Below, piece by piece: positions 50,387 to 64,000 of a stretch of DNA of 64,000 bases. The notes under the pieces are model-generated. The model made no database searches and was not told the origin of the DNA. It saw nothing but the letters and a program-made list of their open reading frames with translations. Position numbers and translations under genes: made by a program. Where the stretch lies: the NCBI GenBank assembly GCA_965217995.1, contig CBDCKB010000004.1:323788-387787 (forward strand). Reading direction: 5' to 3'. Origin of the DNA: Rhodobacterales bacterium. Lineage in GTDB: Bacteria > Pseudomonadota > Alphaproteobacteria > Rhodobacterales > CAZPXZ01. How positions within the stretch are numbered: position 1 is the first letter of the stretch; each line of letters begins with the position of its first letter.

Positions 50387-50396
50387 ACCCTCCCCC

Positions 50397-51326
50397 ATGC
50401 GCCACAGTATCGACCTCATCAGCTGGCTCCTGCTGCTCACCCTCGCCTCACTCTGGTCGCTGAGTTTCATCTTCCAGGAGGTCGCGCTGGAGGAGCTGGA
50501 CCCGTTCACCACCGTCCTCGGCCGGGTGGGATGCGGGGCGGTTGTGATCTGGCTCTATGTGCTCGCCCGCGGCCTGCCCGTCCCTTCCAGTGCCCGCATC
50601 TGGGCCCGCTTCGCCCTGCTCGGCCTCCTCACCAATGTGATCCCCTTCTCGCTGATTGTCTGGGGACAGAGCCACATCCTGGGCGGCGAGGCCGCAATCC
50701 TGAATGCCACCACGCCAATCTTCACCGTGCTGATCGGCCATTTTGCAACCCAGGATGACCGCCTGACCCGCAACCGCGCCATCGGCATCCTGCTCGGCAT
50801 CCTCGGCGCTGCCGTGATGGTCGGCGTCGAGACGGCCGGGGTCGGAGCCCGGGTCAGCTGGGGCTATCTCGCGATCATCGGAGCCTCGATCTCCTACGGC
50901 TTCGCCGCGCATGCGGCCCGCCGGGTGGCCGCAGATATCCCCGGTCCGGTCGCAGCCGCCTGCATGCTGACCATGAGCAGCATGTGGATGATCCCGATCG
51001 TATTGCTGCTCGGCGACCCGCTGCCCGTCTCGCCCCGGATCTCCACCCTCACCGCCATCCTCATCCTCGGAGCCCTGTGCTCGGCGCTGGCCTATATCGT
51101 CTATTTCGCCATCCTGCGGCGGGCGGGTGCCACAACCCTGATGCTGGTGACGATGATCATTCCACCCGGCACGCTGATCCTCGGAGCGGTGTTTCTGGGC
51201 GAGCGGTTCGGGGCCAATGATTTTGCCGGCCTCGCCCTGATCATCGCGGCACTGGCCATCATTGACGGACGCATCCTGCATCTATACCCCGGTCGCAGGA
51301 ACGCCAAGCCACGGACCCGATCATGA
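50397..51326 (+). CDS. DMT-superfamily (EamA-like) transporter, copy 2 (tandem paralog)
   Basis: The N-terminus (MRHSIDLISWLLLLTLA) and C-terminus (FLGERFGANDFAGLALI..ALAI.DGRILHLYPGRRNAKP) are nearly identical to copy 1. Confidence 0.8.
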   Translation: MRHSIDLISWLLLLTLASLWSLSFIFQEVALEELDPFTTVLGRVGCGAVVIWLYVLARGLPVPSSARIWARFALLGLLTNVIPFSLIVWGQSHILGGEAAILNATTPIFTVLIGHFATQDDRLTRNRAIGILLGILGAAVMVGVETAGVGARVSWGYLAIIGASISYGFAAHAARRVAADIPGPVAAACMLTMSSMWMIPIVLLLGDPLPVSPRISTLTAILILGALCSALAYIVYFAILRRAGATTLMLVTMIIPPGTLILGAVFLGERFGANDFAGLALIIAALAIIDGRILHLYPGRRNAKPRTRS

Positions 51327-52264
51327 ACCCTCCCCCTCCCGAAGATCCGATGCGTTACGCCTTCATCGGCCTCGGCCATCTCGGCAAGTATCTCGCAGCC
51401 AACCTCCTTCGCGGCGGCTTCCCGCTCGCGGTCCATGATCTCGATCCCGCCGCCTGCGAGAGGCTCGCCGCGGCCGGAGCCCGGGTCGCCGACAGCGCCG
51501 CCGATGCCGCCCGGGGCGCGGATGCCGCGATCACCTGCCTCCCCTCGCCCGCCGCGACGCGGGAGGTGCTGGAAAGCGGAGACGGCGTGCTTGCCGGACT
51601 TGCGGAAGGCACCACCTGGATCGAGATGAGCACCAACGACCCGGCCGAGATCCAGTCCCTGGCCGAGATCGCGGGCCGGGCCGGAATCCGCACCCTGGAG
51701 GCGCCGGTCACCGGCGGCGTGCACCGGGCCGCGACCGGCGAGATCACCGTGCTGGCCGGCGGTCCGCAGGAACTGTTCGAGGCACACCGCCCGGCCCTCG
51801 CCGCGATGGGCGGTCTGGTGTTCCATATCGGAGAGCTCGGCAAGGCGTCGGTGATCAAGGTGATCACCAACATGCTTGCCTTCCTGCATCTGGTCGGGGC
51901 CGGGGAAGCGCTGGCCCTGGCAAAACAATCCGGAATCGATCTGGGGATTGCCTTCGAGGCGATCCGGGCGAGTTCCGGCAACAGCTTTGTCCACGAGACC
52001 GAAAGCCAGGTGATCCTCAACGGCAGCTACGATATCGGCTTCACCCTGGACCTGGCCTGCAAGGATGCCGGGCTCGCAGCCATGATCGGCGAACGCAGCG
52101 GCGTGCCGCTGGTCCTCGCCAGCAAGGTCCGGGAGCTTCTCGAGGAAGCGCGCCGGTGCTATGGCGGGGATGCGTGGTCGCCGGAGGTGGTGCGGCTCCT
52201 CGAGGAGAAAATCGGCGCCGAATTGCGGGCACCGGGATTTCCGGCGACCCTGGAAGAAGAATAG
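51323..52264 (+). CDS. NAD(P)-dependent oxidoreductase of the 3-hydroxyisobutyrate/6-phosphogluconate dehydrogenase family
   Basis: YAFIGLGHLGKYLAANL is a Rossmann motif. ATG 51323 overlaps the upstream stop (ATGA); ATG 51350 is an alternative. Confidence 0.8.
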   Translation: MNPPPPEDPMRYAFIGLGHLGKYLAANLLRGGFPLAVHDLDPAACERLAAAGARVADSAADAARGADAAITCLPSPAATREVLESGDGVLAGLAEGTTWIEMSTNDPAEIQSLAEIAGRAGIRTLEAPVTGGVHRAATGEITVLAGGPQELFEAHRPALAAMGGLVFHIGELGKASVIKVITNMLAFLHLVGAGEALALAKQSGIDLGIAFEAIRASSGNSFVHETESQVILNGSYDIGFTLDLACKDAGLAAMIGERSGVPLVLASKVRELLEEARRCYGGDAWSPEVVRLLEEKIGAELRAPGFPATLEEE

Positions 52265-52321
52265 CTGTCTGCAGGAATTCCCGCCCGGCGTTTCTGACGG
52301 GCGCGGATTGCCCCCCGGATC

Positions 52322-53611
52322 TCAGATGCCGCCGGCCGCCTCCAGCGTGTCATCCCAGGTGCGCAACCCGGTGGTCGGGGCCGAGACCAGCACCGCCATA
52401 TTGCCTGGCTTGTGCACATTCTCGAGCATTTTCATATGTGCCCGGGGGATGTCGGTCCATGGGAAGACCTCCGACATGCAGGGGTCGATCCGGCGCTCGA
52501 GCATCAGCTGGTTGGCCTGGCTCGCCTGCTTGAGATTGGCGAAATGGGATCCCTGGATCCGCTTCTGGTGCATCCAGACATAGCGTGCATCGAAGGTGAG
52601 GTTGTAGCCCGTCGTGCCGGCACAGAAGACCACCATGCCGCCGCGCTTGACCACAAAGGTCGAGACGGGGAAGGTCGCCTCCCCCGGATGCTCGAACACC
52701 ACATCGACATTCACACCCTTGCCGGTGATCTCCCAGATCGCCTTGCCGAAACGGCGCGCATCGGCAAACCATTTTGTGTATTCGGGTGTGTTGACCGTCG
52801 GCAGCCGGCCCCAGCATTCGAATTCGGTGCGGTTGATCACCCCCTTGGCGCCGAGTTCCAGCACGAAGTCGCGCTTGCCCTCGTCGGAGATCACACCGAT
52901 CGCATTGGCCCCGGCGGTGTTGACCAGCTGGATCGCGAAAGAACCCAGCCCGCCGGACGCGCCCCATACCAGCACATTGTGGCCGGGACGCAGGATGTGC
53001 GGCCGGTGGCCGAACAGCATCCGGTAGGCGGTCGCCAGGGTCAGCGTGTAGCAGGCTGATTCCTCCCAGGTCAGATGCGGCGGCCGACGCATCAATTGCT
53101 GGGCCTGGACACGGGCGAACTGCGCGAAAGACCCGTCCGGCGTCTCATAGCCCCAGATCCGCTGCGAGGCGGAAAACATCGGGTCGCCGCCATTGCATTC
53201 CTCGTCATCGCCATCGTCCTGGTTGCAATGCACGACGACCTCGTCGCCGACCCGGAAGCGGCGCACCTTCTCACCGACCTTCCAGACAATTCCGGCCGCG
53301 TCCGAGCCTGCGACATGGTAGGGGGCGCCATGCACGTCGAACGGGGAGATGGGCTTGCCGAGCGCGGCCCAGACGCCGTTGTAGTTCACCCCCGCCGCCA
53401 TCACGAGCACCAGCACCTCCCCGGAAGCGATCTCCGGGACATCCACCACCTCGAGCTGCATCGCGGAGTCGGGATTGCCATGCCGCTCGCGGCGGATCGC
53501 CCAGGCATACATCTGTTTCGGAACATGCCCGAGAGGCGGAAACCGTCCGACCTCATACAGGTCCTCGCCTGGCGGCGGCGGTGCCTCGGCGGCGGCGGCA
53601 ATGGCGGCCAT
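52322..53611 (-). CDS. ccr: Crotonyl-CoA carboxylase/reductase
   Basis: ATG at 53611. GHVPKQMYAWAIRRERHG...VLVLVMAAGVNYNGVWA...YHVAGSDAAGIVWKVG is typical of Ccr. The gene is divergent from an ecm-like mutase. Confidence 0.85.
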   Translation of the reverse strand: MAAIAAAAEAPPPPGEDLYEVGRFPPLGHVPKQMYAWAIRRERHGNPDSAMQLEVVDVPEIASGEVLVLVMAAGVNYNGVWAALGKPISPFDVHGAPYHVAGSDAAGIVWKVGEKVRRFRVGDEVVVHCNQDDGDDEECNGGDPMFSASQRIWGYETPDGSFAQFARVQAQQLMRRPPHLTWEESACYTLTLATAYRMLFGHRPHILRPGHNVLVWGASGGLGSFAIQLVNTAGANAIGVISDEGKRDFVLELGAKGVINRTEFECWGRLPTVNTPEYTKWFADARRFGKAIWEITGKGVNVDVVFEHPGEATFPVSTFVVKRGGMVVFCAGTTGYNLTFDARYVWMHQKRIQGSHFANLKQASQANQLMLERRIDPCMSEVFPWTDIPRAHMKMLENVHKPGNMAVLVSAPTTGLRTWDDTLEAAGGI

Positions 53612-53721
53612 CCTCAAGCTCCCATTCTCTGTGGAATTTGTGCATTGCAAGATATCGGCCCGACCGACCGGCGGCAAATAATGATTTATGATGCACTGCG
53701 GCAACTGGCGCGGACCCCCCT

Positions 53722-55701
53722 ATGAACACGAGCCCTGCGAACCGGGAGCGCGACCGGCCCTGGATTTTCCGCACCTATGCCGGGCATTCCAGCGCCGCGG
53801 AGTCGAACGCGCTCTACCGGGCCAATCTCGCCAAGGGACAGACCGGCCTGTCGGTGGCCTTCGACCTGCCGACCCAGACCGGCTACGACCCCGATCATCC
53901 CCTCGCCGCCGGCGAGGTCGGACGCGTGGGAGTGCCGGTGGCGCATCTGGGCGACATGCGGGTGCTGCTCGAAGGCATCCCGCTCGACCGCATGAACACC
54001 TCGATGACCATCAATGCCACCGCCCCCTGGCTGCTGGCGCTCTACACCGCGCTCGCCGATGAGGCCGGAATCTCCCGGACCGAATTGCGGGGCACGACGC
54101 AGAACGACATCCTCAAGGAGTATCTCTCGCGGGGCACCTACATCCTGCCCCCGGCGGCGTCGCTCCGGCTCGCCGCCGACATCGCCGCCTGGACGGCGGT
54201 GGAGATGCCGCACTGGAATCCGACCAATGTCTGCTCGTACCACCTGCAGGAAGCCGGCGCGACGCCGGCCCAGGAGATCGCCTACGCCCTCGCCACCGCC
54301 ACCGCGATGCTGGACGAGATCCGCCGGCGGCCGGAGGCGGACGGGGAGGCCTTCCCCGGCATGGTCGGGCAGATGTCCTTTTTCATGAATGCCGGGATCC
54401 GCTTCATCGAGGAGATGTGCAAATTGCGGGCCTTCGCCGAGATCTGGGACGAAATCTGCCACACCCGCTACGGCGTCGAGGACCCCAAACTGCGTCGCTT
54501 CCGCTACGGCGTGCAGGTCAACTCCCTCGGCCTCACCGAACAGCAGCCCGAGAACAACATCGCCCGCATCCTTCTCGAGATGCTGGCCGTCACCCTCTCG
54601 AAGCGCGCCCGCGCCCGCGCCGTGCAGCTCCCGGCCTGGAACGAGGCGCTCGGCCTGCCGACCCGTTGGGACCAGCAATGGTCGCTCCGCCTGCAGCAGA
54701 TTCTGGCCCATGAGACCGACCTGCTCGAATACGAGGATCTGTTCGACGGCTCCCCGGTGGTCGATGCCCGGGTCGCCGAGATCCGGGCCGCGGCGGAAGC
54801 CGAATTCCGCGAGGTCGAAGCTGAGGGCGGTGCGGTCGCGGCCATCGAATACATGAAATCCCGACTGGTCGCCTCCAACGCCGAGCGGATGGCCGAAATC
54901 GAATCGGGCGAACGGACCGTCGTCGGCGTGAACGCCTACACCGAGGCCGAGCCGAGTCCGCTGGCCAGCGGGGATGCCGGCATCGTCGCGGTCGACCCCG
55001 CGGTCGAGGAAAAGGCCCGGGCCGGCATCCGCGCCTGGCGCAAGGCGCGCGACAGCGCGGAAACCGCAAAGGCCCTCGCCGCGCTCGAAGCCGACGCACA
55101 GGCCGGGCGCAACATCATGCCGGCATCGGTGACGGCGGCCCGGGCCGGGGCCACCACCGGCGAATGGGCGGCCGCCCTCCGACGGGTGTTCGGCGAATAC
55201 CGGGCGCCCACCGGCATCAGCCAGGCACCGGTCCGGACCGACCCGGAGACCGAGGTGCTGCGTGCCGAAGTGGAAGCGGTCTCCCGGCGGCTGGGGCGGC
55301 CGGTGACCTTCCTGCTCGGCAAGCCGGGACTCGACGGCCATTCCAACGGCGTCGAGCAGATCGCCGTGCGGGCGCGGGATTGCGGCATGCGCGTCATCTA
55401 TGAGGGCATCCGTTTCGGGCCGGAGGAAATCGCCGGCCGGGCGCGCGACGAGGGCGCGCATCTGGTCGGGCTGTCGGTCCTTTCCGGCTCGCATCTGCCC
55501 CTGGCACGGGCCGTGCTGGCGGAGCTCGAGAAGGCGGGGCGGGGGGACGTGCCGGTGGTCGTCGGCGGCATCATCCCGCCCGAGGATGCGGCAGATCTCA
55601 AGCAGGCAGGCATCGCACGGGTCTATACGCCGAAGGATTTCCGGCTGAACCGGATCATGACCGAACTGGTCGAGCTGGTCGCCGGGAACACGCCCGCCTG
55701 A
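53722..55701 (+). CDS. ecm: Ethylmalonyl-CoA mutase (B12-dependent acyl-CoA mutase with a fused cobalamin-binding domain)
   Basis: RPWIFRTYAGHSSAAESNALYRANLAKGQTGLSVAFDLPTQTGYD is the mutase N-terminus. GKPGLDGHSNGVEQIA is the DxHxxG B12 motif. The assignment as ecm rests on its context with ccr. Confidence 0.8.
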   Translation: MNTSPANRERDRPWIFRTYAGHSSAAESNALYRANLAKGQTGLSVAFDLPTQTGYDPDHPLAAGEVGRVGVPVAHLGDMRVLLEGIPLDRMNTSMTINATAPWLLALYTALADEAGISRTELRGTTQNDILKEYLSRGTYILPPAASLRLAADIAAWTAVEMPHWNPTNVCSYHLQEAGATPAQEIAYALATATAMLDEIRRRPEADGEAFPGMVGQMSFFMNAGIRFIEEMCKLRAFAEIWDEICHTRYGVEDPKLRRFRYGVQVNSLGLTEQQPENNIARILLEMLAVTLSKRARARAVQLPAWNEALGLPTRWDQQWSLRLQQILAHETDLLEYEDLFDGSPVVDARVAEIRAAAEAEFREVEAEGGAVAAIEYMKSRLVASNAERMAEIESGERTVVGVNAYTEAEPSPLASGDAGIVAVDPAVEEKARAGIRAWRKARDSAETAKALAALEADAQAGRNIMPASVTAARAGATTGEWAAALRRVFGEYRAPTGISQAPVRTDPETEVLRAEVEAVSRRLGRPVTFLLGKPGLDGHSNGVEQIAVRARDCGMRVIYEGIRFGPEEIAGRARDEGAHLVGLSVLSGSHLPLARAVLAELEKAGRGDVPVVVGGIIPPEDAADLKQAGIARVYTPKDFRLNRIMTELVELVAGNTPA

Positions 55702-55718
55702 CCCCATCCCTCTCCCCC

Positions 55719-55754
55719 AAACGGCCTTCCGGACATCCCCCGACAGGGGCCGTT
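55719..55754 (+). terminator. Possible stem-loop downstream of ecm
   Basis: aaacggcc-N20-ggccgttt forms 8-bp arms. The loop is large and there is no U-tract, so the call is weak. Confidence 0.2.
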
Positions 55755-55839
55755 TGACCGATATTCCCCGACAGGATCATTACTGACTGGTTTATGGGGT
55801 TATTATCCCAACCGAAGAATTCCCTGTGTCAGGAACTCC

Positions 55840-56859
55840 ATGATTCGCCGCCTTTCCCTTCTGCTGCTTGCGCTTGCGCTTGTCGGCCTCATGCCGACGG
55901 CCGCTACGGCCGACGAAGAGGTCAATGTCTACTCCTACCGGCAGCCGGATCTGATCGAGCCGCTGCTGGAGCGCTTCACTGCCGAGACCGGAATCAAGCC
56001 CAACATCCTCAGCATCCCGAGGGGGCTGCTGGCGCGGATCAAGGAAGAGGGCGAACTCAGCCCCGCGGATGTCCTCCTGGTCGTCGATATCGGACGGCTC
56101 TCGAACGCCGTCACGCAGGGCATCACGCAGCCGGTGCACGATCCGGAGATCGAGGCCCGCGTGCCCGCCAGCCTCCGCGACCCGGAGGGCCATTGGACCG
56201 CCCTGACCACGCGGGCCCGGATTGTCTACACCTCGAGGCAGCGTGTAACCCCGGGCGAAATCACCACCTATGAGGACCTCGCCGACCCCCGCTGGAAGGG
56301 GCGCATCTGCACCCGCTCCGGACGCCACCAGTACAACATCGCCCTGCTCGCGGCGATGATCCACCATCACGGCAGCGGGAAGGCGGAGGCATGGCTGCGC
56401 GGCATCAAGGCCAATCTCGCGCGCCGACCGCAGGGCAACGACCGCGCCCAGATCAAGGCCATCTGGGCCGGCGAATGCGACATCTCGATCGGCAACACCT
56501 ACTACATGGGGAAGATGCTCGAAAACGCCGAGCAGCGTCCCTGGGCTGATTCGGTGCGCGTCACCTTCCCGAAATTCGAGAGCGGCGGCACCCATATCAA
56601 CGTGTCCGGCGTTGCCATGGCGAAGCATGCCCCCAACCCGGAAAACGCCCGCCGGCTGATTCGCTTCCTGGTCTCCGACGCCGCGCAACAGATCTACGCC
56701 GAGGACAATTTCGAATATCCCGTCAACCCCGACGTGCCGGCCTCGGCACGCGTCCGGGCCTGGGGTTCTTTCGACCCCGACCCGATCGCGATGGCCGAGA
56801 TCGCCCGCCGTCGGGCCGAGGCGTTGCGGATTGTTGACCGGGTCGGGTTCGACAACTGA
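55840..56859 (+). CDS. Fe(3+)-type ABC transporter periplasmic substrate-binding protein
   Basis: It has a signal peptide (MIRRLSLLLLALALVGLMPTAATA) and EVNVYSYRQPDLIEPLL...ICTRSGRHQYN...GNTYYMG. No permease or ATPase gene lies adjacent. Confidence 0.75.
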   Translation: MIRRLSLLLLALALVGLMPTAATADEEVNVYSYRQPDLIEPLLERFTAETGIKPNILSIPRGLLARIKEEGELSPADVLLVVDIGRLSNAVTQGITQPVHDPEIEARVPASLRDPEGHWTALTTRARIVYTSRQRVTPGEITTYEDLADPRWKGRICTRSGRHQYNIALLAAMIHHHGSGKAEAWLRGIKANLARRPQGNDRAQIKAIWAGECDISIGNTYYMGKMLENAEQRPWADSVRVTFPKFESGGTHINVSGVAMAKHAPNPENARRLIRFLVSDAAQQIYAEDNFEYPVNPDVPASARVRAWGSFDPDPIAMAEIARRRAEALRIVDRVGFDN

Positions 56860-56895
56860 ACCCACGCGAAATCAGACCACCCGATCCTCACCGCG

Positions 56896-57945
56896 CTAGC
56901 GGTTGCTTTTTTGATACGACCCCCGACACCGTCCGCCATACGCGTGCAGATCTGCGTTGCTGCAACCGCTGAGTAGCTTCTGTCGGTGTGCATCCTCAAG
57001 CGGCAGAAACAGAAGGGTCCCGTTGTTGCGGTGCGTGACCTCCCGCATGAGGGTCACAAACCGGGCCGATGAGGCATTTCCGGAATGCAGACCGATCGCG
57101 TGCACGCGGACCTCGGCCTTGGGATGCTTTGCCCGCCAGCTATCCAAGGTCTGGATCACGACATCATAGCTAAGGCCCGTGTAGTCATCCCCAAATATGT
57201 AGATCGCCACCCGATCTCCCCGGGTGCCGTAGGTCTGTAGCGCGGCTCTAAGACCCTCGATCGGGCTGCTGTTGGAGGCCGCGGTCCAGCCACGCAATGC
57301 TCCCAGCACGTTCCGCCGCAGCCGCGGGGTATCGGGAATCCATTTTCCCTTGTAGGCCGCCAGCAGGTGTTGGCCATTGTCGTTGATGATCTGGAATCCC
57401 TTGACCGTCGGGTGGACATCCAGGACATTCTCCATCTCCGCCAGCACCCGGTCCCAGATCACCTTCATGCTGCCGGACGTATCAAGCAGAAAGATCACAT
57501 ATTCGCTGTCGACCGGAATCCCGCCGACCTCGAGATCCCGCTCCTCGGCCGTGTCCGCCTGCAACGAGGCCTGGTCGAGTGTTTTTTTGACTAGCTCAAG
57601 ACCCCGGGAATCCGCCTTCAGCCGCTCGCTCTCGGCCTGCAATTTCTGGAGCTCCTCCGCCTGTGCCGCCGCCGCCGCCTGCTGCTCGGCAGTCTTCGTC
57701 CCCTGGCCGACAGCCTCAAGAGCCAGCTGCTGGAGTGCGGTGCCCAGACTCTTGATCTCGCGTTCTGCCTCGAAAACCTGGGAGATCAAGGCGCTGGCAT
57801 CGCTGAAATCGGCTTCCCCCGCCTCCGGCTCCTCCACCCCCGTCTTCGAGATCAGCAGAAGGAGGATCATCGCCCCGAAGCCACAGGAGATCGTGTCGAG
57901 AAATGCCATCCCCGACCCGCCGACCTCTTCCCGCCGGGGCCTCAT
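56896..57945 (-). CDS. Single-TM, coiled-coil, vWA-domain protein (paralog 2)
   Basis: ATG at 57945 overlaps the upstream stop (ATGA). The TM segment is FLDTISCGFGAMILLLLI. A coiled coil rich in A/E/Q follows. The MIDAS motif is FLLDTSGSM. Confidence 0.7.
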   Translation of the reverse strand: MRPRREEVGGSGMAFLDTISCGFGAMILLLLISKTGVEEPEAGEADFSDASALISQVFEAEREIKSLGTALQQLALEAVGQGTKTAEQQAAAAAQAEELQKLQAESERLKADSRGLELVKKTLDQASLQADTAEERDLEVGGIPVDSEYVIFLLDTSGSMKVIWDRVLAEMENVLDVHPTVKGFQIINDNGQHLLAAYKGKWIPDTPRLRRNVLGALRGWTAASNSSPIEGLRAALQTYGTRGDRVAIYIFGDDYTGLSYDVVIQTLDSWRAKHPKAEVRVHAIGLHSGNASSARFVTLMREVTHRNNGTLLFLPLEDAHRQKLLSGCSNADLHAYGGRCRGSYQKSNR

Positions 57946-59021
57946 GGCCAACGCGGCGCCGGTGCCAGCATCAGCCCCCCCGTGATGCTGGTCCAGACGC
58001 CGTATTCATAAACCGCTTGCGGATCTCCCTCGAGCGGCAGCAGCACAACATTCGCCCGCGTGGTCGAAAGATCCGGCCCCGCCGCCGCCATCGAATTCCA
58101 GAACAGCTGGAGTCGGCAATCCCCCGAAATAGTCTGACTCCGGTTCGAACAGCCCGATCCGAATTGAAAACTGGCCTTCGCCTGGGTCGGCAATCCGTCG
58201 GTGACAAGATAGAGATCCGTCACGTTGGGGCGGAGCTTCCCCAGTTCGACCAGGCCTGCCTGGAGATTGGTTGGCCCGGACGGAACCAGGGTTCTAAGAT
58301 CGCGAACCAGTGTGTTAATCTGACCCGAGCTGCCTCCTTTCAGCCATCCGCCCGGCCCCAGCTGCCGCGCCTCAGCGCTGAATGCGATGACAGAGACCTG
58401 GCTTCCCTCAGGAACCCGATTGAGCAGCCAGCGCACAGTTCTTTGTGTCCGCTTCCATTTCGGTCCGTCCTTCTTGTGGGCGTCCGACCGGATCTTGCGG
58501 AAAATAATGTCACGCAGTTTCTCATCGGTCATCGAGGCACTGTGATCGACGAGGATGGCGATCCTTTTCCCCTCCACCCGCAGACCGAGCAGATATTCCT
58601 CCTCCCCGACCGAAGGATCCTCAATGACATCGGCGGTTTCTTTCTCCTTGATGCTTTCCACCGCCTTCTTCAATTCCGCGTTCCGCTGGCGAAGCCGATC
58701 GATCTCTTTCCGGAGCGCATCCTCCGCCTCCCGCGAAGCGGCCGACTGCTTCTCCCCTCTTGCCTCTGCCACAGTCTGTTCGGCCTTGCGCCTCACAGCC
58801 TCGACGGTTTGCTCCTCGAGACTCCGCCTCTGCTCTTGAAGGGCTTCCAGCTCCTCCTCCAGCCGCTGTGTCTCGACCACGGGAGATTCTTTTTCCGTCT
58901 CCACATTGTGCTTGATGACCAGAAACAGAAGAATGGTCGCGCCCAGCCCGCAGGCCATGACATCCAGGAAGGCGAGGTTGAATCCTTCAGCGCGGCGGCG
59001 GCGGAGCAAGAGTCGGCCCAC
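57942..59021 (-). CDS. Single-TM, coiled-coil, vWA-domain protein (paralog 1)
   Basis: GTG start at 59021. The TM segment is FLDVMACGLGATILLFLV. The coiled coil reads ETQRLEEELEALQEQRRSLEEQ.... The MIDAS motif is ILVDHSASM. Confidence 0.7.
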   Translation of the reverse strand: MGRLLLRRRRAEGFNLAFLDVMACGLGATILLFLVIKHNVETEKESPVVETQRLEEELEALQEQRRSLEEQTVEAVRRKAEQTVAEARGEKQSAASREAEDALRKEIDRLRQRNAELKKAVESIKEKETADVIEDPSVGEEEYLLGLRVEGKRIAILVDHSASMTDEKLRDIIFRKIRSDAHKKDGPKWKRTQRTVRWLLNRVPEGSQVSVIAFSAEARQLGPGGWLKGGSSGQINTLVRDLRTLVPSGPTNLQAGLVELGKLRPNVTDLYLVTDGLPTQAKASFQFGSGCSNRSQTISGDCRLQLFWNSMAAAGPDLSTTRANVVLLPLEGDPQAVYEYGVWTSITGGLMLAPAPRWP

Positions 59022-59835
59022 TTGTCTCGTTGTTCTCGTCTTTCTTGCCTGTCTTGCTGATGCGCCTCAGCAGGTGCTCCTCGCAATATTCCTGGATCTT
59101 GATCAGCTCCTTGTCCTGCAAATGCTGCAATCTGTGCAGAAACATCATCAGAACGATGCTGGCGAACAGGGCGATGAAGGTCGAATTGAAGGCAGTCCCG
59201 AGATTGGCCGTCATTGAAGCGATATCCCCGGCCAGCGCCTCATCGGCCTCCGACAGGGCTTGGCCGATGCCGCGTACGGTGCCGATAAATCCGATCGAAG
59301 GGATGGCCCAGATCATGTAGCGGATCATCGCGTTATCCGCCTCCACGCGCATTCCCAGCGCCTCGACGCTGGAATTGACCGCATCGGAAGTGTTCTGCAC
59401 GTCATCGGTGATCTGGTAGCGCCGGATGCTTGCCCTGAGCGTATTCGCCAGAGGCGTGTCGCGTTCGGAGGGCTCCAGATTCTCCAGATCCTCCAAGGCG
59501 CTGGACAAAGCGTCCTTGTTGTCCTCCACCTTGTGCAGGAGGTCCACACCATACATGTACCGCCGGGAACGCAGGCTGCGGATCTTGGCCACGATCATCC
59601 AGGCGCAGCACAGAGTGAGGATCACGCAGAACTCCTGCTCCCAATCCTTGAGGATGACCACCAGATCCCGCGGCGCGGACTCCCCCGCCAGACGCGCGGC
59701 TTCGACAGCCCGCTCGGCGGACGGCCGGATGAATAAGTAATAGACCACATGGACCGGAACCGCGATGGACACAACGGTGATGGCATTGCGGAGCCAGTCG
59801 ACCCTCTCAATTATCCGCGTGAAAAATTTGGCCAT
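58987..59835 (-). CDS. MotA/TolQ/ExbB-family proton-channel protein
   Basis: The C-terminal signature is YMIWAIPSIGFIGTVRGIGQAL...ANLGTAFNSTFIALFASIVLMMF. ATG at 59835. Confidence 0.75.
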   Translation of the reverse strand: MAKFFTRIIERVDWLRNAITVVSIAVPVHVVYYLFIRPSAERAVEAARLAGESAPRDLVVILKDWEQEFCVILTLCCAWMIVAKIRSLRSRRYMYGVDLLHKVEDNKDALSSALEDLENLEPSERDTPLANTLRASIRRYQITDDVQNTSDAVNSSVEALGMRVEADNAMIRYMIWAIPSIGFIGTVRGIGQALSEADEALAGDIASMTANLGTAFNSTFIALFASIVLMMFLHRLQHLQDKELIKIQEYCEEHLLRRISKTGKKDENNETSGPTLAPPPPR

Positions 59836-59836
59836 C

Positions 59837-60025
59837 TCAAATATCCACGGGAAAACTTGTCGGGGAATTCAGGCCGATGCCCGGGGATGCGTTCTGCGCG
59901 ACACTCTCCCGCCGGAAATGCAGGAATACCGCCGCCAGAACCAGGAGGACCAGCATCATGGCAAGGAGGCCGCGGGGGCCGCGGGTGCGGATTCGGCTAC
60001 CGGTAAGCCGCATTTTCATCGCCAT
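59837..60025 (-). CDS. Small single-pass membrane protein
   Basis: 62 aa with an Arg-rich N-terminus followed by LLAMMLVLLVLAAVFL. Its stop lies 1 nt before the motA-like ATG, and it overlaps the upstream gene by 29 nt. Confidence 0.4.
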   Translation of the reverse strand: MAMKMRLTGSRIRTRGPRGLLAMMLVLLVLAAVFLHFRRESVAQNASPGIGLNSPTSFPVDI

Positions 60026-62138
60026 ACAGATATCTTACCACCCGAAAGCCGAGATCGTCGCCAGACCCCTCTGATGAATTACGATACGCTGCGCGCAGCT
60101 CCCGAAGTGTTGCCGACCGCCAGCTGGAACCCTTGACGATATGGGCACTAGCCGGCTCGTCCCTTCGCGGGTCGATCTCCTCACCTCCCCCCGCAGGAGG
60201 AATCGCGAAATAGGCATCATGCGTCCATTCGTGGACATTCCCTGCCAGATCGTGGATCCCGGCCCGATTCGGATTGAAACGGCCGACCGGTGCCAGCTCG
60301 GGAAACCCGTCTATATAATTCGGAATGTAGGAGTTGACTTTTCCCTTTCCCTTTACCGATTCATCGGCCAGGTTTCCAGTCCGGCTTGGAACTTTTTCGT
60401 CGTCTCCCCAAGGGAACCGGATCTGGTTCCTGTGCCCGGACTCCTTCCCGGACTTCCGCGCCAGCCATTCCCACTCGGCTTCGGTCGGCAGGCGATAGCC
60501 GTCGGCATCTCCATTGACACCAAGATAGCGGTCGCCGTCCAGCCTGTAGAACACGCCAAAGCCTTCGCGTTTGCTGAGCCAGTTGCAAAACTGGACAGCC
60601 TCGATCCAGGTCACATCCGTTGCCGGAAGATCACCAGAACCGGAAGCCTGTGCAACGCCCGGGAATTCGCCCCGCTGTTTCTGGGTCACCTCATGCACAC
60701 CCACATAGAACGCCCGGACCAGCTGCACAGAGCGGAGAAACTCATTCGGGCCCCTGCCCTTCTCTCCGCGCGGCGAGCCCATCACAAACTTGCCCGGTTC
60801 GATGAACAGACGCAGGGGCATGCCGACGCTGTTTACAACCGTCTTGGGTGCATTCCGGATCCGGAACTCCTTCTCGGTTTCGAGTTGGAGATCCACCCGC
60901 GAAAGTTTGTCCGGCGTCGGCGTCAATTTCCGCTTGACAGCCTCATATCCCTTCCGGGTCACAACGATCTCATGTTCAACTGCGCTCAGTGTCAGCCGCA
61001 GCGGAGTCGTTCCGACTGGCTTCCCGTCAACCAACACATCGGCCGCAGGCTTGGAAACCACCTCCACCTCCCCGACAATCTCCTCCAGCGACATTTCCAG
61101 TGTGGTGCGTTCGCCCGGCTGCAGCTGAAATGTTGCTTCGACCCCGGTATGGCCGTCTTTTCGGTAGATTGCGCGGTGCGCCACCAGTGCCTGTACCGGT
61201 ATTTCGTTGAAATTTTTCTGGATTCGTCCGCCTAGCAACAAAACTCCGCCTTCGGGCCGAAGCTGGAAAGTCACGAATGCATCCTCTTGCAACAAAACAT
61301 AGTTCTTCTGGATTTCAGAATTTTCCTTCGTGACCTGCACGGTTTCGGAGACGCTCTTGTAACCCGGCAGGGTCACCTCGATTTCATGCGTGCCGATATC
61401 AATTTCCCATTTGCCCGGTGCCGGACCCTGCGCCAGGCCATTGACCGAGACTGTTGCGCCGGGCGGTTTGGTGATCACTTCCAGCTGGAAGTGCACCGGC
61501 ACCAGATCCACCACCAGATCACTCTCCTTGCCGCGGAAAATTTCTATCTGGACCGATTCCGTCTGGTGCCGGGGGCTGTCGACAGTCAATGTGTAAGCCC
61601 CAGGTTCGAGCTCAATATCGAGGCGCGCCCCGACCACCACGGGTTTCCCGTCGACGGACCATTCAGCACCAGGGGCAGGCGGACGTGTCTCCGCCCGTAG
61701 CTGCCCCGGCAGTTCACGCAACGTCACCTCAATCGATTTTTCCTGCTGGTCAGGGGACAGATCCACTTCCTCGGGGTGGAAACCCTCCGATTCCACCCGC
61801 AGGACGGTCGGCCCCAAGACCCAAACCTGCCGGTCGGAAAACATAGGCATCTCCCAAGCCCATCCTTCAGTTTGCAGCTGCGCCATAGATTCTGCTTTGG
61901 GGGGCGAAACATGCACAGAGAACACGGCTAAAAAGTGCCCGACTGCAGCACTTACACCGACTACACCGACTACACCGACTACAACGATCACCCACTTTGG
62001 TACGCCGAAAACCCGTGACTGCCCGGCGTGACCCTTCTTGCCCTTATTGAGAGCAGCTTGTGCCTGATTAACTGGTTTCTTATTAGGAGAGGGCTCGGCG
62101 GGAATTTTAAATGCGCCGGTATCGTCAGAGTGGCTCAT
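59997..62138 (-). CDS. Membrane-anchored protein with PEGA-like repeats and a C-terminal FGE-sulfatase (SUMF1/EgtB/PvdO) domain
   Basis: ATG at 62138. The TM segment is WVIVVVGVVGVVGVSAAV. Repeated beta-rich modules appear (GAYTLTVDSPRHQTE, IEVTLPGYKSVSE, HEIVVTRKGYEAVK). FGE motifs are YRLPTEAEWEW, HDLAGNVHEW and LGFRVVR. Confidence 0.8.
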   Translation of the reverse strand: MSHSDDTGAFKIPAEPSPNKKPVNQAQAALNKGKKGHAGQSRVFGVPKWVIVVVGVVGVVGVSAAVGHFLAVFSVHVSPPKAESMAQLQTEGWAWEMPMFSDRQVWVLGPTVLRVESEGFHPEEVDLSPDQQEKSIEVTLRELPGQLRAETRPPAPGAEWSVDGKPVVVGARLDIELEPGAYTLTVDSPRHQTESVQIEIFRGKESDLVVDLVPVHFQLEVITKPPGATVSVNGLAQGPAPGKWEIDIGTHEIEVTLPGYKSVSETVQVTKENSEIQKNYVLLQEDAFVTFQLRPEGGVLLLGGRIQKNFNEIPVQALVAHRAIYRKDGHTGVEATFQLQPGERTTLEMSLEEIVGEVEVVSKPAADVLVDGKPVGTTPLRLTLSAVEHEIVVTRKGYEAVKRKLTPTPDKLSRVDLQLETEKEFRIRNAPKTVVNSVGMPLRLFIEPGKFVMGSPRGEKGRGPNEFLRSVQLVRAFYVGVHEVTQKQRGEFPGVAQASGSGDLPATDVTWIEAVQFCNWLSKREGFGVFYRLDGDRYLGVNGDADGYRLPTEAEWEWLARKSGKESGHRNQIRFPWGDDEKVPSRTGNLADESVKGKGKVNSYIPNYIDGFPELAPVGRFNPNRAGIHDLAGNVHEWTHDAYFAIPPAGGGEEIDPRRDEPASAHIVKGSSWRSATLRELRAAYRNSSEGSGDDLGFRVVRYLYGDENAAYR

Positions 62139-63960
62139 CACACACCACAATCACCTCCACCGGTGCTGTCCTTCCCGCTACGATCGAGAGTTCGACGAGC
62201 TTCGATCGATAGCCTTCCCGCTTTCCCTCGAAGACATAGGTTCCCGGCCGCAACTTGATGACCTTTTCGATGATACGCCCGACCGAGCCGACCCGACGCA
62301 CGGTGATCTCAGTCATATTGTCGGAACGGACCAGCACCTCGATTTCGGTGTGGGCCTGACCGAGTGCAATTTCGAGCTCCTCCACATGTTTCGCAAGCTG
62401 CCTTGCTGAACCGAGCTGCGACAGGCGCGCATCGTCCAACGCATCTTTTGCATTGTCCAACACACCACGGGCGGCCTCTGCGACATTGTCCGATGACAGG
62501 CGATCGGGTCGTTGTAGATAAATAACGATTTGCTCATCTGTGTCAATGATCCGTCCGGCCACATCGGCACCATTCAAGGCATCGGCGTTGGAGGGATCGA
62601 TTGCCAGCACCTTGCGGAACATAGCACGCGCCTGGTGCCAGTCATCCCCGATCGCCTGCGCGTTGGCTTCCGCCAGGAAATTGCGTGAGTCTACCTCCCT
62701 TTGCAGACGCTCAACCGCTACCTCCAGCACTTCGACCTCGTCCCGCCCCGGGGCCAGTTCCCGAGCCCGTTGCAGGGCCCGTCTGGCCACCGGCAGAGCC
62801 TGCTCATCAACGGCATCCAACCCCTCCATGATGATTTCCCCGAACTTCTGCCTGACCAGCTGCCGGTACCGGTCCACCATTTCGACCCGTAGCGAATCAA
62901 GACCCAGGACCCGCTCCAGGGCCGAAAGCTCGGCCCGGAAGTCCTTCTCTGTCCGTGCCCGGTCGGCATCCTTGATCGCCTGCAGAACTTCCGGCAGCAC
63001 ATCAATCCGGCCGCGCAGAGCCTGTCCCTCCGCATCCTCCGGTTTGATCCGCAATGCCTGGTTGATGTGCCGCTTGGCCAGTGCCGGGTCCGATGCCTCC
63101 AAGGCGTCCGATGCCTGATCTAGATGCTCCCGGAAGCGGGTCTCCCCGATCTCCAATGCTTTACGGGCTGATGCTTCGGCCGCCTCCAACAAATCGACTG
63201 CGGTTGCGTAGAGACCGGACGTGAATTCCCGCAAAGCACGATCCCGGTCCTCCTGGATTTCCTGTGCCAACTCCGGATCCCATTGCGCGAGAGAAATGGC
63301 TTCCAATGCCGGGTCGATCTCCTCTTCGAAGCGCTTTGCCCGTGCCAGATAGTCCGACCGCGCCTGCTGCGTGTTCTCTTCTTCCTCGACCGCCGTCAGA
63401 GCACCCTCAGAAGCTTCAGAACGAACTGGATCATCCAACTGCACCTGCTGCGTGTTCTCTTCTTCGACCGCCGTCGGGGCGCGGTCAGAGGCTTCCGAAC
63501 GAACCGAATCATCCGACCCCGCCTCTGCGTGCTCCTTATCTCCCCCTACCCCCGTACGGACATGGTCAAAGTTTTCGGGAAGGAGCAGATAGTCCGCCCC
63601 CGCCTGCGGCGTGATCCCTCCTTCCCCGATCACCGTAGGGGTACGGTCAGAGGCTATAGAACCTGCATCTCTTTCGGTTTCCTCGGAAAGATACGTATAA
63701 TTCTCCTCAGAGAACCAGTTGCAAAAACGGTTCCGCGGATCATTCCAAACCAGACAGGAGAATAATAACCAGACCACGTAGCCAGATATCATGAATAGCA
63801 CGAAGAAGAGTAGGATTCGTAGTATGTTCCACTGCTTCTTACGCGAGTTTTTTTGTTTATCCTCCTCGGGGTCCTTAGCACTCCTCCCCCAAATCTCCTG
63901 AACAAAGGCGTAGAAAAAGCTGAAGGCAACGATGAGGGAAAGAACGAAAACTCCAAACAA
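62125..63960 (-). CDS. Membrane protein with an acidic repeat region, TPR-like helical repeats and a C-terminal PEGA-like module
   Basis: The track start is TTG 63960, but the frame stays open to the window end, so the true start may lie beyond 64000. There are two N-terminal TM segments. The C-terminus reads KLRPGTYVFEGKREGYRSKLVEL. Confidence 0.6.
   Translation of the reverse strand: MFGVFVLSLIVAFSFFYAFVQEIWGRSAKDPEEDKQKNSRKKQWNILRILLFFVLFMISGYVVWLLFSCLVWNDPRNRFCNWFSEENYTYLSEETERDAGSIASDRTPTVIGEGGITPQAGADYLLLPENFDHVRTGVGGDKEHAEAGSDDSVRSEASDRAPTAVEEENTQQVQLDDPVRSEASEGALTAVEEEENTQQARSDYLARAKRFEEEIDPALEAISLAQWDPELAQEIQEDRDRALREFTSGLYATAVDLLEAAEASARKALEIGETRFREHLDQASDALEASDPALAKRHINQALRIKPEDAEGQALRGRIDVLPEVLQAIKDADRARTEKDFRAELSALERVLGLDSLRVEMVDRYRQLVRQKFGEIIMEGLDAVDEQALPVARRALQRARELAPGRDEVEVLEVAVERLQREVDSRNFLAEANAQAIGDDWHQARAMFRKVLAIDPSNADALNGADVAGRIIDTDEQIVIYLQRPDRLSSDNVAEAARGVLDNAKDALDDARLSQLGSARQLAKHVEELEIALGQAHTEIEVLVRSDNMTEITVRRVGSVGRIIEKVIKLRPGTYVFEGKREGYRSKLVELSIVAGRTAPVEVIVVCDEPL
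63364..63516 (-). repeat. Two imperfect tandem repeats of about 72-81 bp (start-to-start spacing 81 bp) encoding an acidic segment
   Basis: ctgctgcgtgttctcttcttc...cgccgtc...gaagcttc.gaacgaac..gatcatcc appears twice, encoding D.VRSEAS..A.TAVEEE.NTQQ. Confidence 0.7.
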
Positions 63961-64000
63961 AAATACCCTATGCTGGACCAGACCCCAAACCGTCGGAGCA

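Follow-up and report, generated by a model that had tools for sequence, protein, structure and literature searches.

A conserved eight-gene operon predicted to encode an ion-driven envelope motor of the TPH-vWA class

The operon at the end of the analysed window, a 64,000-nucleotide stretch of Rhodobacterales DNA, probably specifies a 5:2-type envelope motor that is ion-driven and belongs to the "TPH-vWA" class (probability approximately 0.6). The stator-type reading is well supported because the trans-pore helices carry an invariant Asp, the MIDAS motifs are complete, the channel Thr residues are invariant and ExbD, TolR, MotB and OmpA are lacking. An earlier note on this DNA had proposed a stator-type motor driven by proton-motive force (pmf), with vWA heads, comprising six genes and not mappable to any described system. 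Its structural inference stands on the Asp, T186/T219, the MIDAS, the vWA fold and the conserved neighbourhood; the gene count and the lack of a described counterpart do not. The core, in which tolQ-like genes are accompanied by paired "TPH-vWA" genes while tolR and exbD are missing, has already been described purely in silico (Mol Biol Evol 2025;42:msaf138, PMC12204202), and the operon is an ordinary member of this recently predicted motor class.

Operon layout and conservation

Six genes lie within the window; they form the 3′ part of a conserved and self-contained operon of eight, with the following features.

56896-57945, minus strand: vWA2 (trans-pore helix, long helix, vWA domain); ORF with orthologs at 81 of 81 loci
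57469-57483, minus strand: vWA2 MIDAS motif DTSGS (DxSxS); D157, S159 and S161 invariant in alignment A2
57850-57906, minus strand: vWA2 trans-pore helix AFLDTISCGFGAMILLLLI; Asp at 57895-57897; hydrophobic score 2.12
57942-59021, minus strand: vWA1 (trans-pore helix, long helix, vWA domain); ORF with a VWA_2 match of 30.4 bits (cutoff 27)
58533-58547, minus strand: vWA1 MIDAS motif DHSAS (DxSxS); D159, S161, S163, T251 and D275 invariant
58644-58880, minus strand: vWA1 long helix, residues 48-126 (DSSP on the model), presumed coiled-coil stalk
58914-58973, minus strand: vWA1 trans-pore helix AFLDVMACGLGATILLFLVI; Asp20 at 58962-58964; L19, D20, C24 and G25 invariant
58987-59835, minus strand: MotA/ExbB-family channel protein, 282 aa; PF01618 match, 59.2 bits; alignment A1
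59179-59280, minus strand: pore-lining motifs GFIGTVRGIG (T186) and AFNSTFIAL (T219); alignment A1, coordinates checked
59837-60025, minus strand: micro-protein of at most 62 aa; basic N-terminus, one hydrophobic helix, C-terminal LNSPTSFPVDI
59997-62138, minus strand: bitopic PEGA+FGE protein with N-terminal TM anchor; ATG at 62138, ORF extending to 62150
60033-60809, minus strand: FGE-sulfatase domain, PorK-like and non-catalytic; Pfam 125.5 bits, 3.9e-36
approximately 60831-61853, minus strand: PEGA/β-sandwich repeats of the same protein; PEGA 95.4 bits, 1.9e-27
62125-64000 (5′ end cut), minus strand: membrane-anchored TPR protein with C-terminal PEGA-like β domain; frame open at 64000

All six minus-strand ORFs were confirmed in the ORF listing of the window, and the junctions given in the earlier note were verified base by base. 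The vWA2 and vWA1 genes share an ATGA at 57942-57945 (read as CCATGA), and overlaps of 35 nt (58987-59021), 29 nt (59997-60025) and 14 nt (62125-62138) join vWA1 to the MotA-like gene, the micro-protein to PEGA+FGE, and PEGA+FGE to the TPR-like gene, respectively. A single nucleotide at 59836 separates the micro-protein stop from the ATG of the MotA-like gene ('GATATT TGA G ATG'). The TPR-like frame runs past base 64000 to a start outside the window, whose end cuts the operon. In a contig of 99.8% identity and in the 80 genomes compared, two more genes lie upstream of the TPR gene; one encodes an acidic protein of the periplasm, the other a lipoprotein whose fold is PelC/TolB-N-like. The previously described six-gene operon is thus correct for the window, while the full operon has eight genes.

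Orthologs of each of the six genes were found, with gene order and strand preserved, at 76-81 of the 81 loci compared (L001 and 80 genomes; E in tblastn down to about 1e-176), indicating that these are real genes and not chance ORFs. The colinear, same-strand eight-gene module is present in 71-80 of the 80 genomes, whose hosts are Gamma-, Alpha- and Zetaproteobacteria, Binatia, Nitrospirales and one Spirochaetales MAG. This survey, which the earlier note had suggested, reveals a gene order conserved across several phyla; beyond the module borders, no conserved neighbour genes were found in the 80 genomes. The channel gene occurs in at least 566 of 185,579 species-representative genomes, and its hosts are diderm lineages throughout. 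Its patchy distribution and the GC content of the operon, which lies below that of the flanks, point to a transferable accessory module and not to a core function. The flanks consist of housekeeping genes and contain no defence island, and zero copies of the module were found in the phage and plasmid collections searched.

The channel protein and its paired vWA partners

Judged by its sequence, the channel protein is a divergent MotA/ExbB-family member. The MotA/TolQ/ExbB signature noted earlier is borne out by its MotA_ExbB (PF01618) score, which exceeds the cutoff of 22.9 bits. The protein scores far under every NCBIfam equivalog cutoff, and none of the solved MotA, ExbB, TolQ and ZorA structures significantly matches its sequence, the best being B. 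subtilis MotA (E 0.33). Its homologs measure 251 aa, with approximately 60% identity to thousands of proteins, and its Pro-rich C-terminal tail is window-specific. Four TM segments in a MotA-type topology are predicted: three hydrophobic segments exceed the threshold, and the fourth, TM3 (approximately residues 171-195), is derived from alignment A1 and the B. subtilis MotA match. T186 and T219 are invariant in alignment A1 and lie 33 residues apart, as do T148/T181 of ExbB and T145/T178 of TolQ.

vWA1 and vWA2 are homologous end to end (profile-profile probability 99.4%, E 4e-21), and their genes are invariably paired across genomes. The vWA1 gene begins at a GTG 35 nt inside the MotA-like gene; its public gene call (338 aa) begins downstream of the conserved Asp. 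vWA2 starts with the ATG at 57945, its ORF reaching a TTG at 57951, and ends in a window-specific C-terminal tail of approximately 33 aa. In 74 of 77 loci its start overlaps the vWA1 stop (ATGA, GTGA or TTGA), which fits 1:1 synthesis.

The translations contain the peptides FLDVMACGLGATILLFLV and FLDTISCGFGAMILLLLI quoted in the earlier note, along with both motifs, DHSAS and DTSGS. The ExbD/TolR-type anchor that had been seen in both paralogs is a TolR/ExbD-like helix whose Asp is invariant in both, within AFLDxMSCGLGA and SFLDVISCGFGA; that of vWA2 (Asp19) is invariant among 78 sequences. Compared with the ExbD Pfam family, the helices gave no match, and the TM helix is of low confidence in the vWA1 monomer model. 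The AlphaFold2 model of vWA1 comprises helices at residues 24-39 and 48-126 and an α/β domain at 150-359 (pLDDT of this domain mostly >90), so that the coiled coil, previously put at roughly 100 aa, corresponds to a long helix of about 80 residues. All top Foldseek PDB matches of this model are vWA/MIDAS domains. The vWA domain with intact MIDAS motif claimed for each paralog was thus upheld, with a complete and conserved MIDAS in both and the fold of vWA1 confirmed by the model; in vWA2, the downstream motifs SNSSP and FGDD are likewise conserved (alignment A2). The basic N-termini, together with C291 and C302, which are invariant within the vWA1 domain, are consistent with a periplasmic head.

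Accessory proteins

All accessory proteins carry a signal peptide, a lipobox or a TM anchor. No match to ExbD, TolR, MotB or OmpA was obtained for any operon protein, in agreement with the earlier note, and the database search it had proposed found no named system covering this cluster in Pfam, NCBIfam or PADLOC. The stop codon of the micro-protein gene sits 1 nt ahead of the MotA-like ATG, and an equivalent small ORF directly 5′ of the MotA-like gene was found in 77 of 80 genomes, ending in F[PS]xDI-stop and most commonly in …LN(S/T/A)PxSFP(V/G)DI-stop. The PEGA+FGE protein (TM segment at residues 53-71) has orthologs in 78 of 80 genomes. Its FGE domain has no catalytic cysteines and is non-catalytic, the segment GSSWRSATLRELRAAYR being devoid of Cys. 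The parallel with GldJ and GldK drawn earlier holds more sharply than it was put, since among solved structures it is PorK/GldK that this domain matches best (approximately 1e-13); the GldK score of the protein is 70 bits against a cutoff of 350.

The TPR protein, with orthologs in 76 of 80 genomes, measures 654-673 aa in full at L001 (ORF 3280/3337-5301). Its description as a TM/TPR-like protein holds for the family, whose profile matches the consensus TPR (1.3e-13) and of which 7 of 22 members match TPR_2, whereas in the window protein itself TPR remains below threshold. The product of the first gene in the operon is invariably a protein with a signal peptide and a long linker that is acidic and disordered. 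The lipoprotein has a fold akin to PelC, the TolB N-domain and LptE; it matches PelC weakly, at E 1e-3 and with a TM-score of 0.56 on the target.

Proposed motor, alternatives and related systems

In the proposed motor, five channel subunits would surround a vWA1-vWA2 heterodimer, and proton flow via the Asp/Thr site would turn or pull this axle. The paired helices would form a periplasmic stalk approximately 12 nm long, whose two MIDAS heads may grasp an acidic residue (our guess at the ligand) on a partner in the periplasm or outer membrane. The foremost candidates for this partner are co-encoded: the PEGA/PorK-like FGE protein anchored in the inner membrane, the TM-TPR protein, the lipoprotein of PelC/TolB-N-like fold and also the periplasmic acidic protein and the tail of the micro-protein (…SFPVDI-COOH). 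Inner-membrane energy would thus be delivered to the outer envelope, much as in TolQRA-Pal or GldLM-PorKN.

TolQ-TolR-TolA and ExbB-ExbD-TonB share the MotA_ExbB channel, the Asp-bearing trans-pore helix and the pore-helix Thr and, with the proposed motor, pmf energy carried across the periplasm; tol-pal also co-encodes a TPR protein and an outer-membrane lipoprotein. Unlike these systems, the operon has no separate TolA/TonB transducer, two paralogs with coiled-coil stalk and vWA head take the place of TolR/ExbD, and the channel has four predicted TM segments instead of three and scores far under the TolQ/ExbB equivalog cutoffs. A Tol-Pal-like envelope-integrity or division system, its vWA heads tethering the inner membrane to an outer-membrane lipoprotein and stabilising or constricting the outer membrane, would suit the TolB-like N-domain of the lipoprotein, which also resembles outer-membrane lipoproteins, the TPR protein (CpoB is the TPR protein of tol-pal operons) and the diderm nature of every host lineage. 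We nevertheless consider it unlikely, as the operon proteins contain no Pal/OmpA-like peptidoglycan-binding domain and the patchy, low-GC occurrence suggests an accessory module. MotAB/PomAB stators share the four-TM A subunit, the single Asp of the B-type helix and the presumed 5:2 architecture, but no OmpA-like peptidoglycan-binding domain or plug motif was recognised in the operon, which also lacks flagellar genes. The GldLM/PorLM motor of secretion and gliding, with its PorK-PorN ring, has the arrangement that we propose here, a dimeric bitopic axle whose long periplasmic stalk reaches from a pentameric ion channel toward an FGE-fold protein; however, GldL does not belong to PF01618, GldM is devoid of a vWA domain, PorK is an outer-membrane lipoprotein whereas the FGE protein is TM-anchored with PEGA repeats, and PorN, the Sov translocon and CTD-type substrates of the type IX secretion system (T9SS) are missing.

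A T9SS- or Pel-like export or surface-assembly machine would keep the motor and refine its output: working on a PorK-like and PelC-like periplasmic/outer-membrane scaffold, it would secrete or display the acidic protein of the operon or a polymer. The proximity of the FGE domain to PorK/GldK, the fit of the lipoprotein to the PelC dodecamer (a polysaccharide export ring) and the constant acidic-linker protein make this possible, if rather doubtful: the PorK-like protein is anchored by a TM segment, lacks a lipobox and stays under the GldK cutoff, the PelC match is weak, and no conserved outer-membrane β-barrel, PorN/PorM/PorL, glycosyltransferase or ATPase lies nearby in the 80 genomes. BatA-E and Agl-Glt (CglB) also encode envelope or membrane vWA/MIDAS proteins with TPR proteins, and the TolQR-type motor of Agl-Glt has a vWA protein as its ultimate target, although CglB is an outer-membrane lipoprotein adhesin and not an axle. 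A static, Bat-like, metal-dependent TM-vWA and TPR scaffold, in which the MotA-family subunit is structural or a channel and performs no mechanical work, recalls the make-up of BatA-E, and the structural matches of the vWA domain include BatB and an aerotolerance-related protein. We judge it very improbable, since in the absence of ion coupling it would be difficult to account for the invariance of the helix Asp and two channel Thr across phyla; the Bat analogy of the earlier note fails because the MoxR AAA+ ATPase and DUF58 used by Bat, which has no MotA-family channel, are absent. ZorAB is a non-flagellar MotA-family motor with weak similarity to the channel domain (PADLOC 3e-4, NCBIfam 2e-3), and the compact, apparently mobile, low-GC module could be taken for a Zorya-type anti-phage or conflict system whose motor would detect a perturbed envelope and set off a response. 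We give this hardly any credence: the remaining proteins match no PADLOC model, the long cytoplasmic ZorA tail, the ZorB peptidoglycan-binding domain and ZorC/D/E or other cytoplasmic effectors (nuclease, NTPase, helicase) are lacking, the partners are all periplasmic or membrane-bound, and the module is absent from the phage and plasmid collections and flanked by housekeeping genes instead of a defence island.

For the motor reading that we prefer, the closest relative is the TPH-vWA class itself (Fig. 4c-d of PMC12204202; seed, Idiomarina loihiensis), whose published AF3 5:2 model lends independent support. Shared are a tolQ/MotA-family gene adjoining two heterologous TM-vWA genes without tolR, exbD or motB, a TolR/ExbD-like trans-pore helix with conserved Asp and no SHLS motif, and conserved channel Thr residues, the comparison with the Idiomarina seed being one of architecture. 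The text of PMC12204202 covers the motor core only, whereas five more genes are equally conserved here. They add to the class the acidic protein, the PelC/TolB-N-like lipoprotein, the TM-TPR protein, the TM-PEGA-PorK-like FGE protein and the …SFPVDI micro-protein, and the host range is widened to Binatia, Nitrospirales and a Spirochaetales MAG.

Operon layout and core proteins

A tightly coupled operon of six minus-strand ORFs had been described in the earlier note, and all six were found at those places in the window. A near-identical metagenome contig (L001; 99.82 % identical to window 51386-64000), which extends 3.4 kb further, adds two same-strand genes upstream of the TPR gene, followed by a divergent DUF898 gene. 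The six window genes stand, and the operon as a whole counts eight genes, two of them beyond the window:

56896-57951, minus strand, vWA2, 351 aa from a TTG (ATG at 57945)
57942-59021, minus strand, vWA1, 359 aa
58987-59835, minus strand, MotA-like channel protein, 282 aa
59837-60025, minus strand, micro-protein, 62 aa
59997-62150, minus strand, PEGA+FGE protein, 717 aa from a TTG (ATG at 62138)
62125 upward, minus strand, TPR-like protein, frame open at base 64000
L001 1170-3136 (equivalent to window ~64290-66260, outside the window), same strand as the operon, two further conserved operon genes

The start of the TPR gene, read on L001, lies ~90-150 nt past the window end. Base-by-base reading of the junctions bore out the ATGA overlap at 57942-57945 (CCATGA), the overlaps of 35 nt (58987-59021), 29 nt (59997-60025) and 14 nt (62125-62138), and the 1-nt gap at 59836 ('GATATT TGA G ATG'). 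The N-terminal helices quoted for the two vWA proteins and their motifs DHSAS and DTSGS were likewise found in the translated sequence. Compared with the window, the PEGA-FGE and vWA2 genes of L001 (~3× coverage) are frameshifted, at 6928-7120 and 10006-10034; these shifts truncate its gene calls and are probably assembly errors. Three lineage-specific tails on the minus strand (58987-59080, 56896-56995 and 62040-62150) are missing in homologs: a Pro-rich C-terminal tail of ~31 aa on the MotA-like protein that overlaps the vWA1 start, a C-terminal tail of ~33 aa with two Cys on vWA2, and a cytoplasmic N-terminus of the PEGA-FGE protein that is longer than in homologs. A promoter and terminator scan of the window gave counts at shuffle level.

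The MotA/TolQ/ExbB signature of the channel protein was confirmed by Pfam (MotA_ExbB, PF01618; 59.2 bits against a gathering cutoff of 22.9, model positions 3-126/127). The protein belongs to a very large family of tightly conserved 251-aa proteins with ~60 % identity among top matches. Of its four hydrophobic segments, whose charges are distributed as in MotA, three score above threshold; the fourth (TM3) was placed with the help of the alignment and of the B. subtilis MotA match. T186 (GFIGTVRGIG) and T219 (AFNSTFxAL), the pore-lining Thr residues, are invariant in the alignment and 33 residues apart, like the essential Thr pair in ExbB and TolQ. The NCBIfam equivalogs for TolQ, ExbB, MotA and ZorA did not reach their cutoffs (15.5-20.9 bits versus 135-500), and a profile search of PDB sequences gave no match below E 0.3. 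As judged from its sequence, the MotA-like protein is remote from every characterised motor. Two of its stretches (residues 36-66 and 86-170, window 59326-59730) are near-invariant across phyla: the TM1-TM2 loop, which is short and periplasmic (…GQSAPRDxxVILKDWEQEIC…), and the cytoplasmic domain (…SLRRYxITxDVQNTSDAI…). Even so, the operon encodes no cytoplasmic partner.

The two vWA proteins share homology along almost all of their sequence (hhalign 99.4 %, E 4e-21, 22 % identity), and the MIDAS residues (DxSxS, then T/S, then D) are conserved in both paralog families. For vWA1, the proposed vWA domain with an intact MIDAS was recovered directly (VWA_2, 30.4 bits versus a cutoff of 27; D159/S161/S163/T251/D275 invariant). 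The Pfam match of vWA2 itself is sub-threshold, and its profile search of PDB sequences returned coiled-coil noise only, so that this assignment relies on profile-profile homology to vWA1, together with the conserved DTSGS…SNSSP…FGDD. An AlphaFold2 model of vWA1 (mean pLDDT 78.8) comprises a TM helix (residues 24-39), a single long helix (48-126) and an α/β domain (150-359, pLDDT mostly >90), whose best Foldseek matches are all vWA/MIDAS domains (CLCA1, BatB, anthrax-toxin receptor, integrin I-domains).

The N-terminal helix carries an invariant Asp in both paralogs (78 + 78 sequences; AFLDxMSCGLGA and SFLDVISCGFGA). The SHLS motif is not present in the vWA proteins, and the isolated N-terminal 60 residues of either gave no ExbD/TolR Pfam match; it is thus by its motif and its invariant Asp that the helix resembles an ExbD/TolR-type anchor. 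Basic N-termini and invariant head cysteines fit an N-in topology with the head in the periplasm. The earlier note had seen no MotB, ExbD, TolR, TonB or OmpA-like gene among the six window genes, and none of the eight operon proteins gave a match to these families.

At 58959-59021 (minus strand), the public gene call for vWA1 (P0135, 338 aa; on L001, 8470-9486) departs from the reading given here, since it begins with the Met in 'VMACG'. This start lies after the AFLD motif, and the annotation thus cuts off the conserved Asp. The public start is probably mis-annotated, conservation among homologs backing an upstream GTG start.

Conservation and accessory proteins

Scanning one genome per species, we found the channel gene in at least 566 species-representative genomes. 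Eighty loci were retrieved, and tblastn searches, for which the proteins of the window and of L001 served as queries, agreed with a de novo clustering of ORFs done independently. The loci come from Arenicellales and other Gammaproteobacteria, Rhodospirillales and other Alphaproteobacteria, Zetaproteobacteria, Binatia, Nitrospirales and one Spirochaetales MAG, and include the culturable isolates Magnetovibrio blakemorei MV-1, Aestuariispira insulae CECT 8488 and Denitrobaculum tricleocarpae R148. A single colinear, same-strand module is conserved across them, and no gene family outside it is conserved in the 10-kb flanks of the 80 genomes.

Occurrence of the operon genes among 80 genomes, in operon order
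Gene 1, periplasmic acidic protein: 71/80
Gene 2, lipoprotein: 75/80
Gene 3, TM-TPR protein: 76/80
Gene 4, TM-PEGA-FGE protein: 78/80
Gene 5, micro-protein: 77/80 (by targeted look)
Gene 6, MotA-like protein: 80/80
Genes 7-8, vWA1 and vWA2: 79/80, always two

The channel gene lies directly beside a vWA gene, with the 35-nt overlap in the window, and this order is kept in 79-80 of the 80 genomes. The vWA1 stop overlaps the following start codon in 74 of 77 genomes (ATGA in 61, GTGA in 10, TTGA in 3). The doubt raised in the earlier note, that the neighbourhood might not be conserved elsewhere, is clearly answered by the recurrence of the colinear module and of the vWA1/vWA2 junction across genomes. 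A distant family member (P0515) lies on a 2.9-kb contig too short to show its gene neighbourhood.

The PEGA and FGE-sulfatase domains attributed to the gene 4 product were both recovered by Pfam (FGE-sulfatase 125.5 bits, 3.9e-36; PEGA 1.9e-27). The protein combines an N-terminal TM anchor with a number of PEGA/β-sandwich repeats and a domain of FGE fold, whose nearest solved relatives are the T9SS ring lipoproteins PorK/GldK (~1e-13). The catalytic or copper-binding cysteine pair of FGE (C-terminal GGS(Y/F)xCxxxxC), in a segment located as in human and bacterial FGE, is absent from the domain: the equivalent segment KGSSWRSATLRELRAAYR is without Cys. This segment, also written GSSWRSATLRELRAAYR, lacks the Cys in the family consensus too. 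Given the absence of Cys from the catalytic segment, the domain is, on sequence grounds, no enzyme but serves binding or scaffolding, like those of GldJ, GldK and PorK.

The TPR-like character of the gene 3 product holds at the family level: the profile matches consensus TPR at 1.3e-13 and 7 of 22 members match TPR_2, the Pfam match of the window's own protein being sub-threshold. It also has a conserved C-terminal β-domain, PEGA-like by eye. The upstream lipoprotein (~400 aa, lipobox LxGC/LxAC) was modelled (pLDDT 73) as an N-terminal α/β domain followed by a long helix and a glycine-rich segment; the fold of the N-domain weakly resembles the PelC dodecamer, the TolB N-domain, LptE and PqiC (E ~1e-3). 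The first-gene product has a signal peptide and a short Cys-bracketed N-domain; a long linker, disordered, acidic and rich in G/S/E, then leads to a motif conserved at the C-terminus (…DIPxxDNDxxxxxQIRxAAxxExDPxxxxxLWNEYRKYK).

Owing to its small size the micro-protein is missed by ORF clustering, and tblastn recovers 25 loci only; the targeted look found an ORF of 45-70 aa just upstream of the MotA-like gene. Its product has a basic N-terminus, one hydrophobic helix and the end F[PS]xDI-stop, mostly …LN(S/T/A)PxSFP(V/G)DI-stop, and may act as a plug, as a ligand of the MIDAS or as a peripheral subunit. Pfam and NCBIfam scans of the two upstream proteins, the micro-protein and the TPR protein matched no named family. 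All operon components sit in the membrane or the periplasm; none is a cytoplasmic enzyme or effector.

Predicted motor class, rival explanations and proposed mechanism

The earlier note was largely right in its interpretation, except that it could not map the locus to a described system: the class is already predicted in PMC12204202 (Mol Biol Evol 2025;42:msaf138), the one relevant paper from literature searches for the gene combination. That work, purely in silico and with a seed from Idiomarina loihiensis, reports a TolQ-like motor class with paired TM-vWA partners (here the TPH-vWA class, for trans-pore helix), the function of which is unknown according to its authors. In this class the TM-vWA genes directly adjoin the tolQ-like gene, clusters are free of tolR/exbD/motB, the vWA genes are 'predominantly found in heterologous pairs', the TolR/ExbD-like trans-pore helix carries a conserved Asp and lacks SHLS, and an AF3 model of a 5:2 complex sets the Asp pair inside the Thr ring. 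The adjacency, the absence of tolR/exbD/motB, the helix with its Asp and the heterologous pair (two paralogs per locus in 79/80 genomes) recur here, and the two Thr of the predicted ring are invariant in sequence. The locus is an ordinary member, assigned by its architecture, of a widespread, recently predicted motor class. The text of PMC12204202 is silent on the PEGA/FGE protein, the lipoprotein, the acidic protein and the micro-protein; the mBio 2025 MotAB survey does not cover vWA partners; and the system is unnamed in Pfam, NCBIfam and PADLOC. We put the probability that the complex is a TPH-vWA-type motor at roughly 0.8.

A role in defence, as in Zorya, was considered on account of weak matches of ZorA to the channel domain (PADLOC, E 3e-4). 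The other five window proteins gave nothing in PADLOC beyond four chance-level coiled-coil matches to vWA1 (E 0.012-0.087), and the defence reading was rejected because these and the weak ZorA matches were all that PADLOC returned. Effectors are absent, tblastn of plasmid and phage collections found no copy, and the flanks are housekeeping genes, all of which makes this role unlikely. The hallmarks of Zorya, i.e. the long ZorA tail, the peptidoglycan-binding domain of ZorB and the effectors ZorC/D or ZorE/F/G, were not found. A static complex would be the reading modelled on the Bat aerotolerance operon, which combines a MoxR AAA+ ATPase, DUF58, the vWA proteins BatA/BatB and TPR proteins. MoxR and DUF58 are absent from the eight conserved genes, with no other ATPase encoded, and a static assembly would leave the invariant Asp and Thr unexplained.

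For a TPH-vWA-type motor, the output may be a Tol-like role in envelope integrity or a T9SS/Pel-like role in export. The export system itself differs from this locus: the FGE protein scored 70.4 bits against a cutoff of 350 for the T9SS PorK/GldK equivalog (TIGR03525), PorK/GldK carry an outer-membrane lipoprotein signal whereas a TM anchor without lipobox is found here, and no PorL/M/N-like gene occurs in the conserved neighbourhood. The parts list suggests a T9SS- or Tol-like trans-envelope machine over a defence system.

Ion-driven 5:2 motors of which there is an understanding are, to our knowledge, few (flagellar stators, Ton, Tol, GldLM/PorLM, AglRQS and Zorya), and each of these opened a field. 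The TPH-vWA class, present in at least several hundred species of several phyla, many of them marine and uncultured, differs from them in having vWA/MIDAS heads in place of the usual TolR/ExbD/MotB partner. New here are the eight-gene parts list, in which five more envelope proteins invariably accompany the motor core; the conserved and easily missed micro-protein; the affinities that link accessory proteins to PorK and to PelC/TolB-N; and the probable mis-annotation of the vWA1 start, which removes the helix with the functional Asp. The list provides concrete targets for experimenters.

As a mechanism, we propose that a pentamer of the channel protein would enclose the helices of one vWA1 and one vWA2, forming a heterodimeric axle that ion flow may turn or pull. 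The paired 80-residue helices would give a stalk of ~12 nm, and the MIDAS heads may bind an acidic ligand on a periplasmic or outer-membrane partner. By gripping such an envelope partner, the heads would allow energy from the inner membrane to be spent at the outer envelope. Most likely the operon itself encodes the partner, which may be the PorK-like domain, the lipoprotein, the acidic protein or, in the micro-protein, the C-terminal …VDI carboxylate. TolQRA-Pal and GldLM-PorKN would be the nearest working analogies. We judge this force-transducer account, taken in full, to have somewhat better than even chances. A more far-reaching and distinctly tentative version, on which we would not wager, is that the eight genes build a trans-envelope machine which has so far gone unrecognised and is separate from Tol, Ton, the flagellar stator, T9SS/gliding and Zorya: the MotA-like pentamer would drive the vWA-headed heterodimeric axle, whose MIDAS would contact a PorK-like/PelC-like periplasmic or outer-membrane scaffold, with the tail of the micro-protein perhaps as ligand or plug, and a surface component would be exported, displayed or remodelled. 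If true, it would be the first case of MIDAS-mediated adhesion as the clutch of an ion-driven motor.

Genomic surroundings

GC content is 0.56-0.61 across the operon versus 0.66-0.71 in the flanking genes (window 50000-64000), which suggests horizontal acquisition. Evidence of an integration site was not obtained, since tRNA and Rfam scans of the window returned nothing; there is no repeat at the operon boundary either. The downstream neighbours (52322-56859) are unrelated housekeeping genes:

55840-56859, plus strand, solute-binding protein
53722-55701, plus strand, B12-dependent MM_CoA_mutase-family protein
52322-53704, minus strand, ADH_N/ADH_zinc_N reductase

The latter two resemble ecm and ccr, a gene pair of the ethylmalonyl-CoA pathway. 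In this high-GC flank, real genes are faced by very long antisense ORFs, e.g. a 673-aa ORF (53686-55707, minus strand) opposite the mutase gene; these are high-GC artefacts and not genes, and antisense ORF 'families' of a like kind were also seen in the clustering of related loci.
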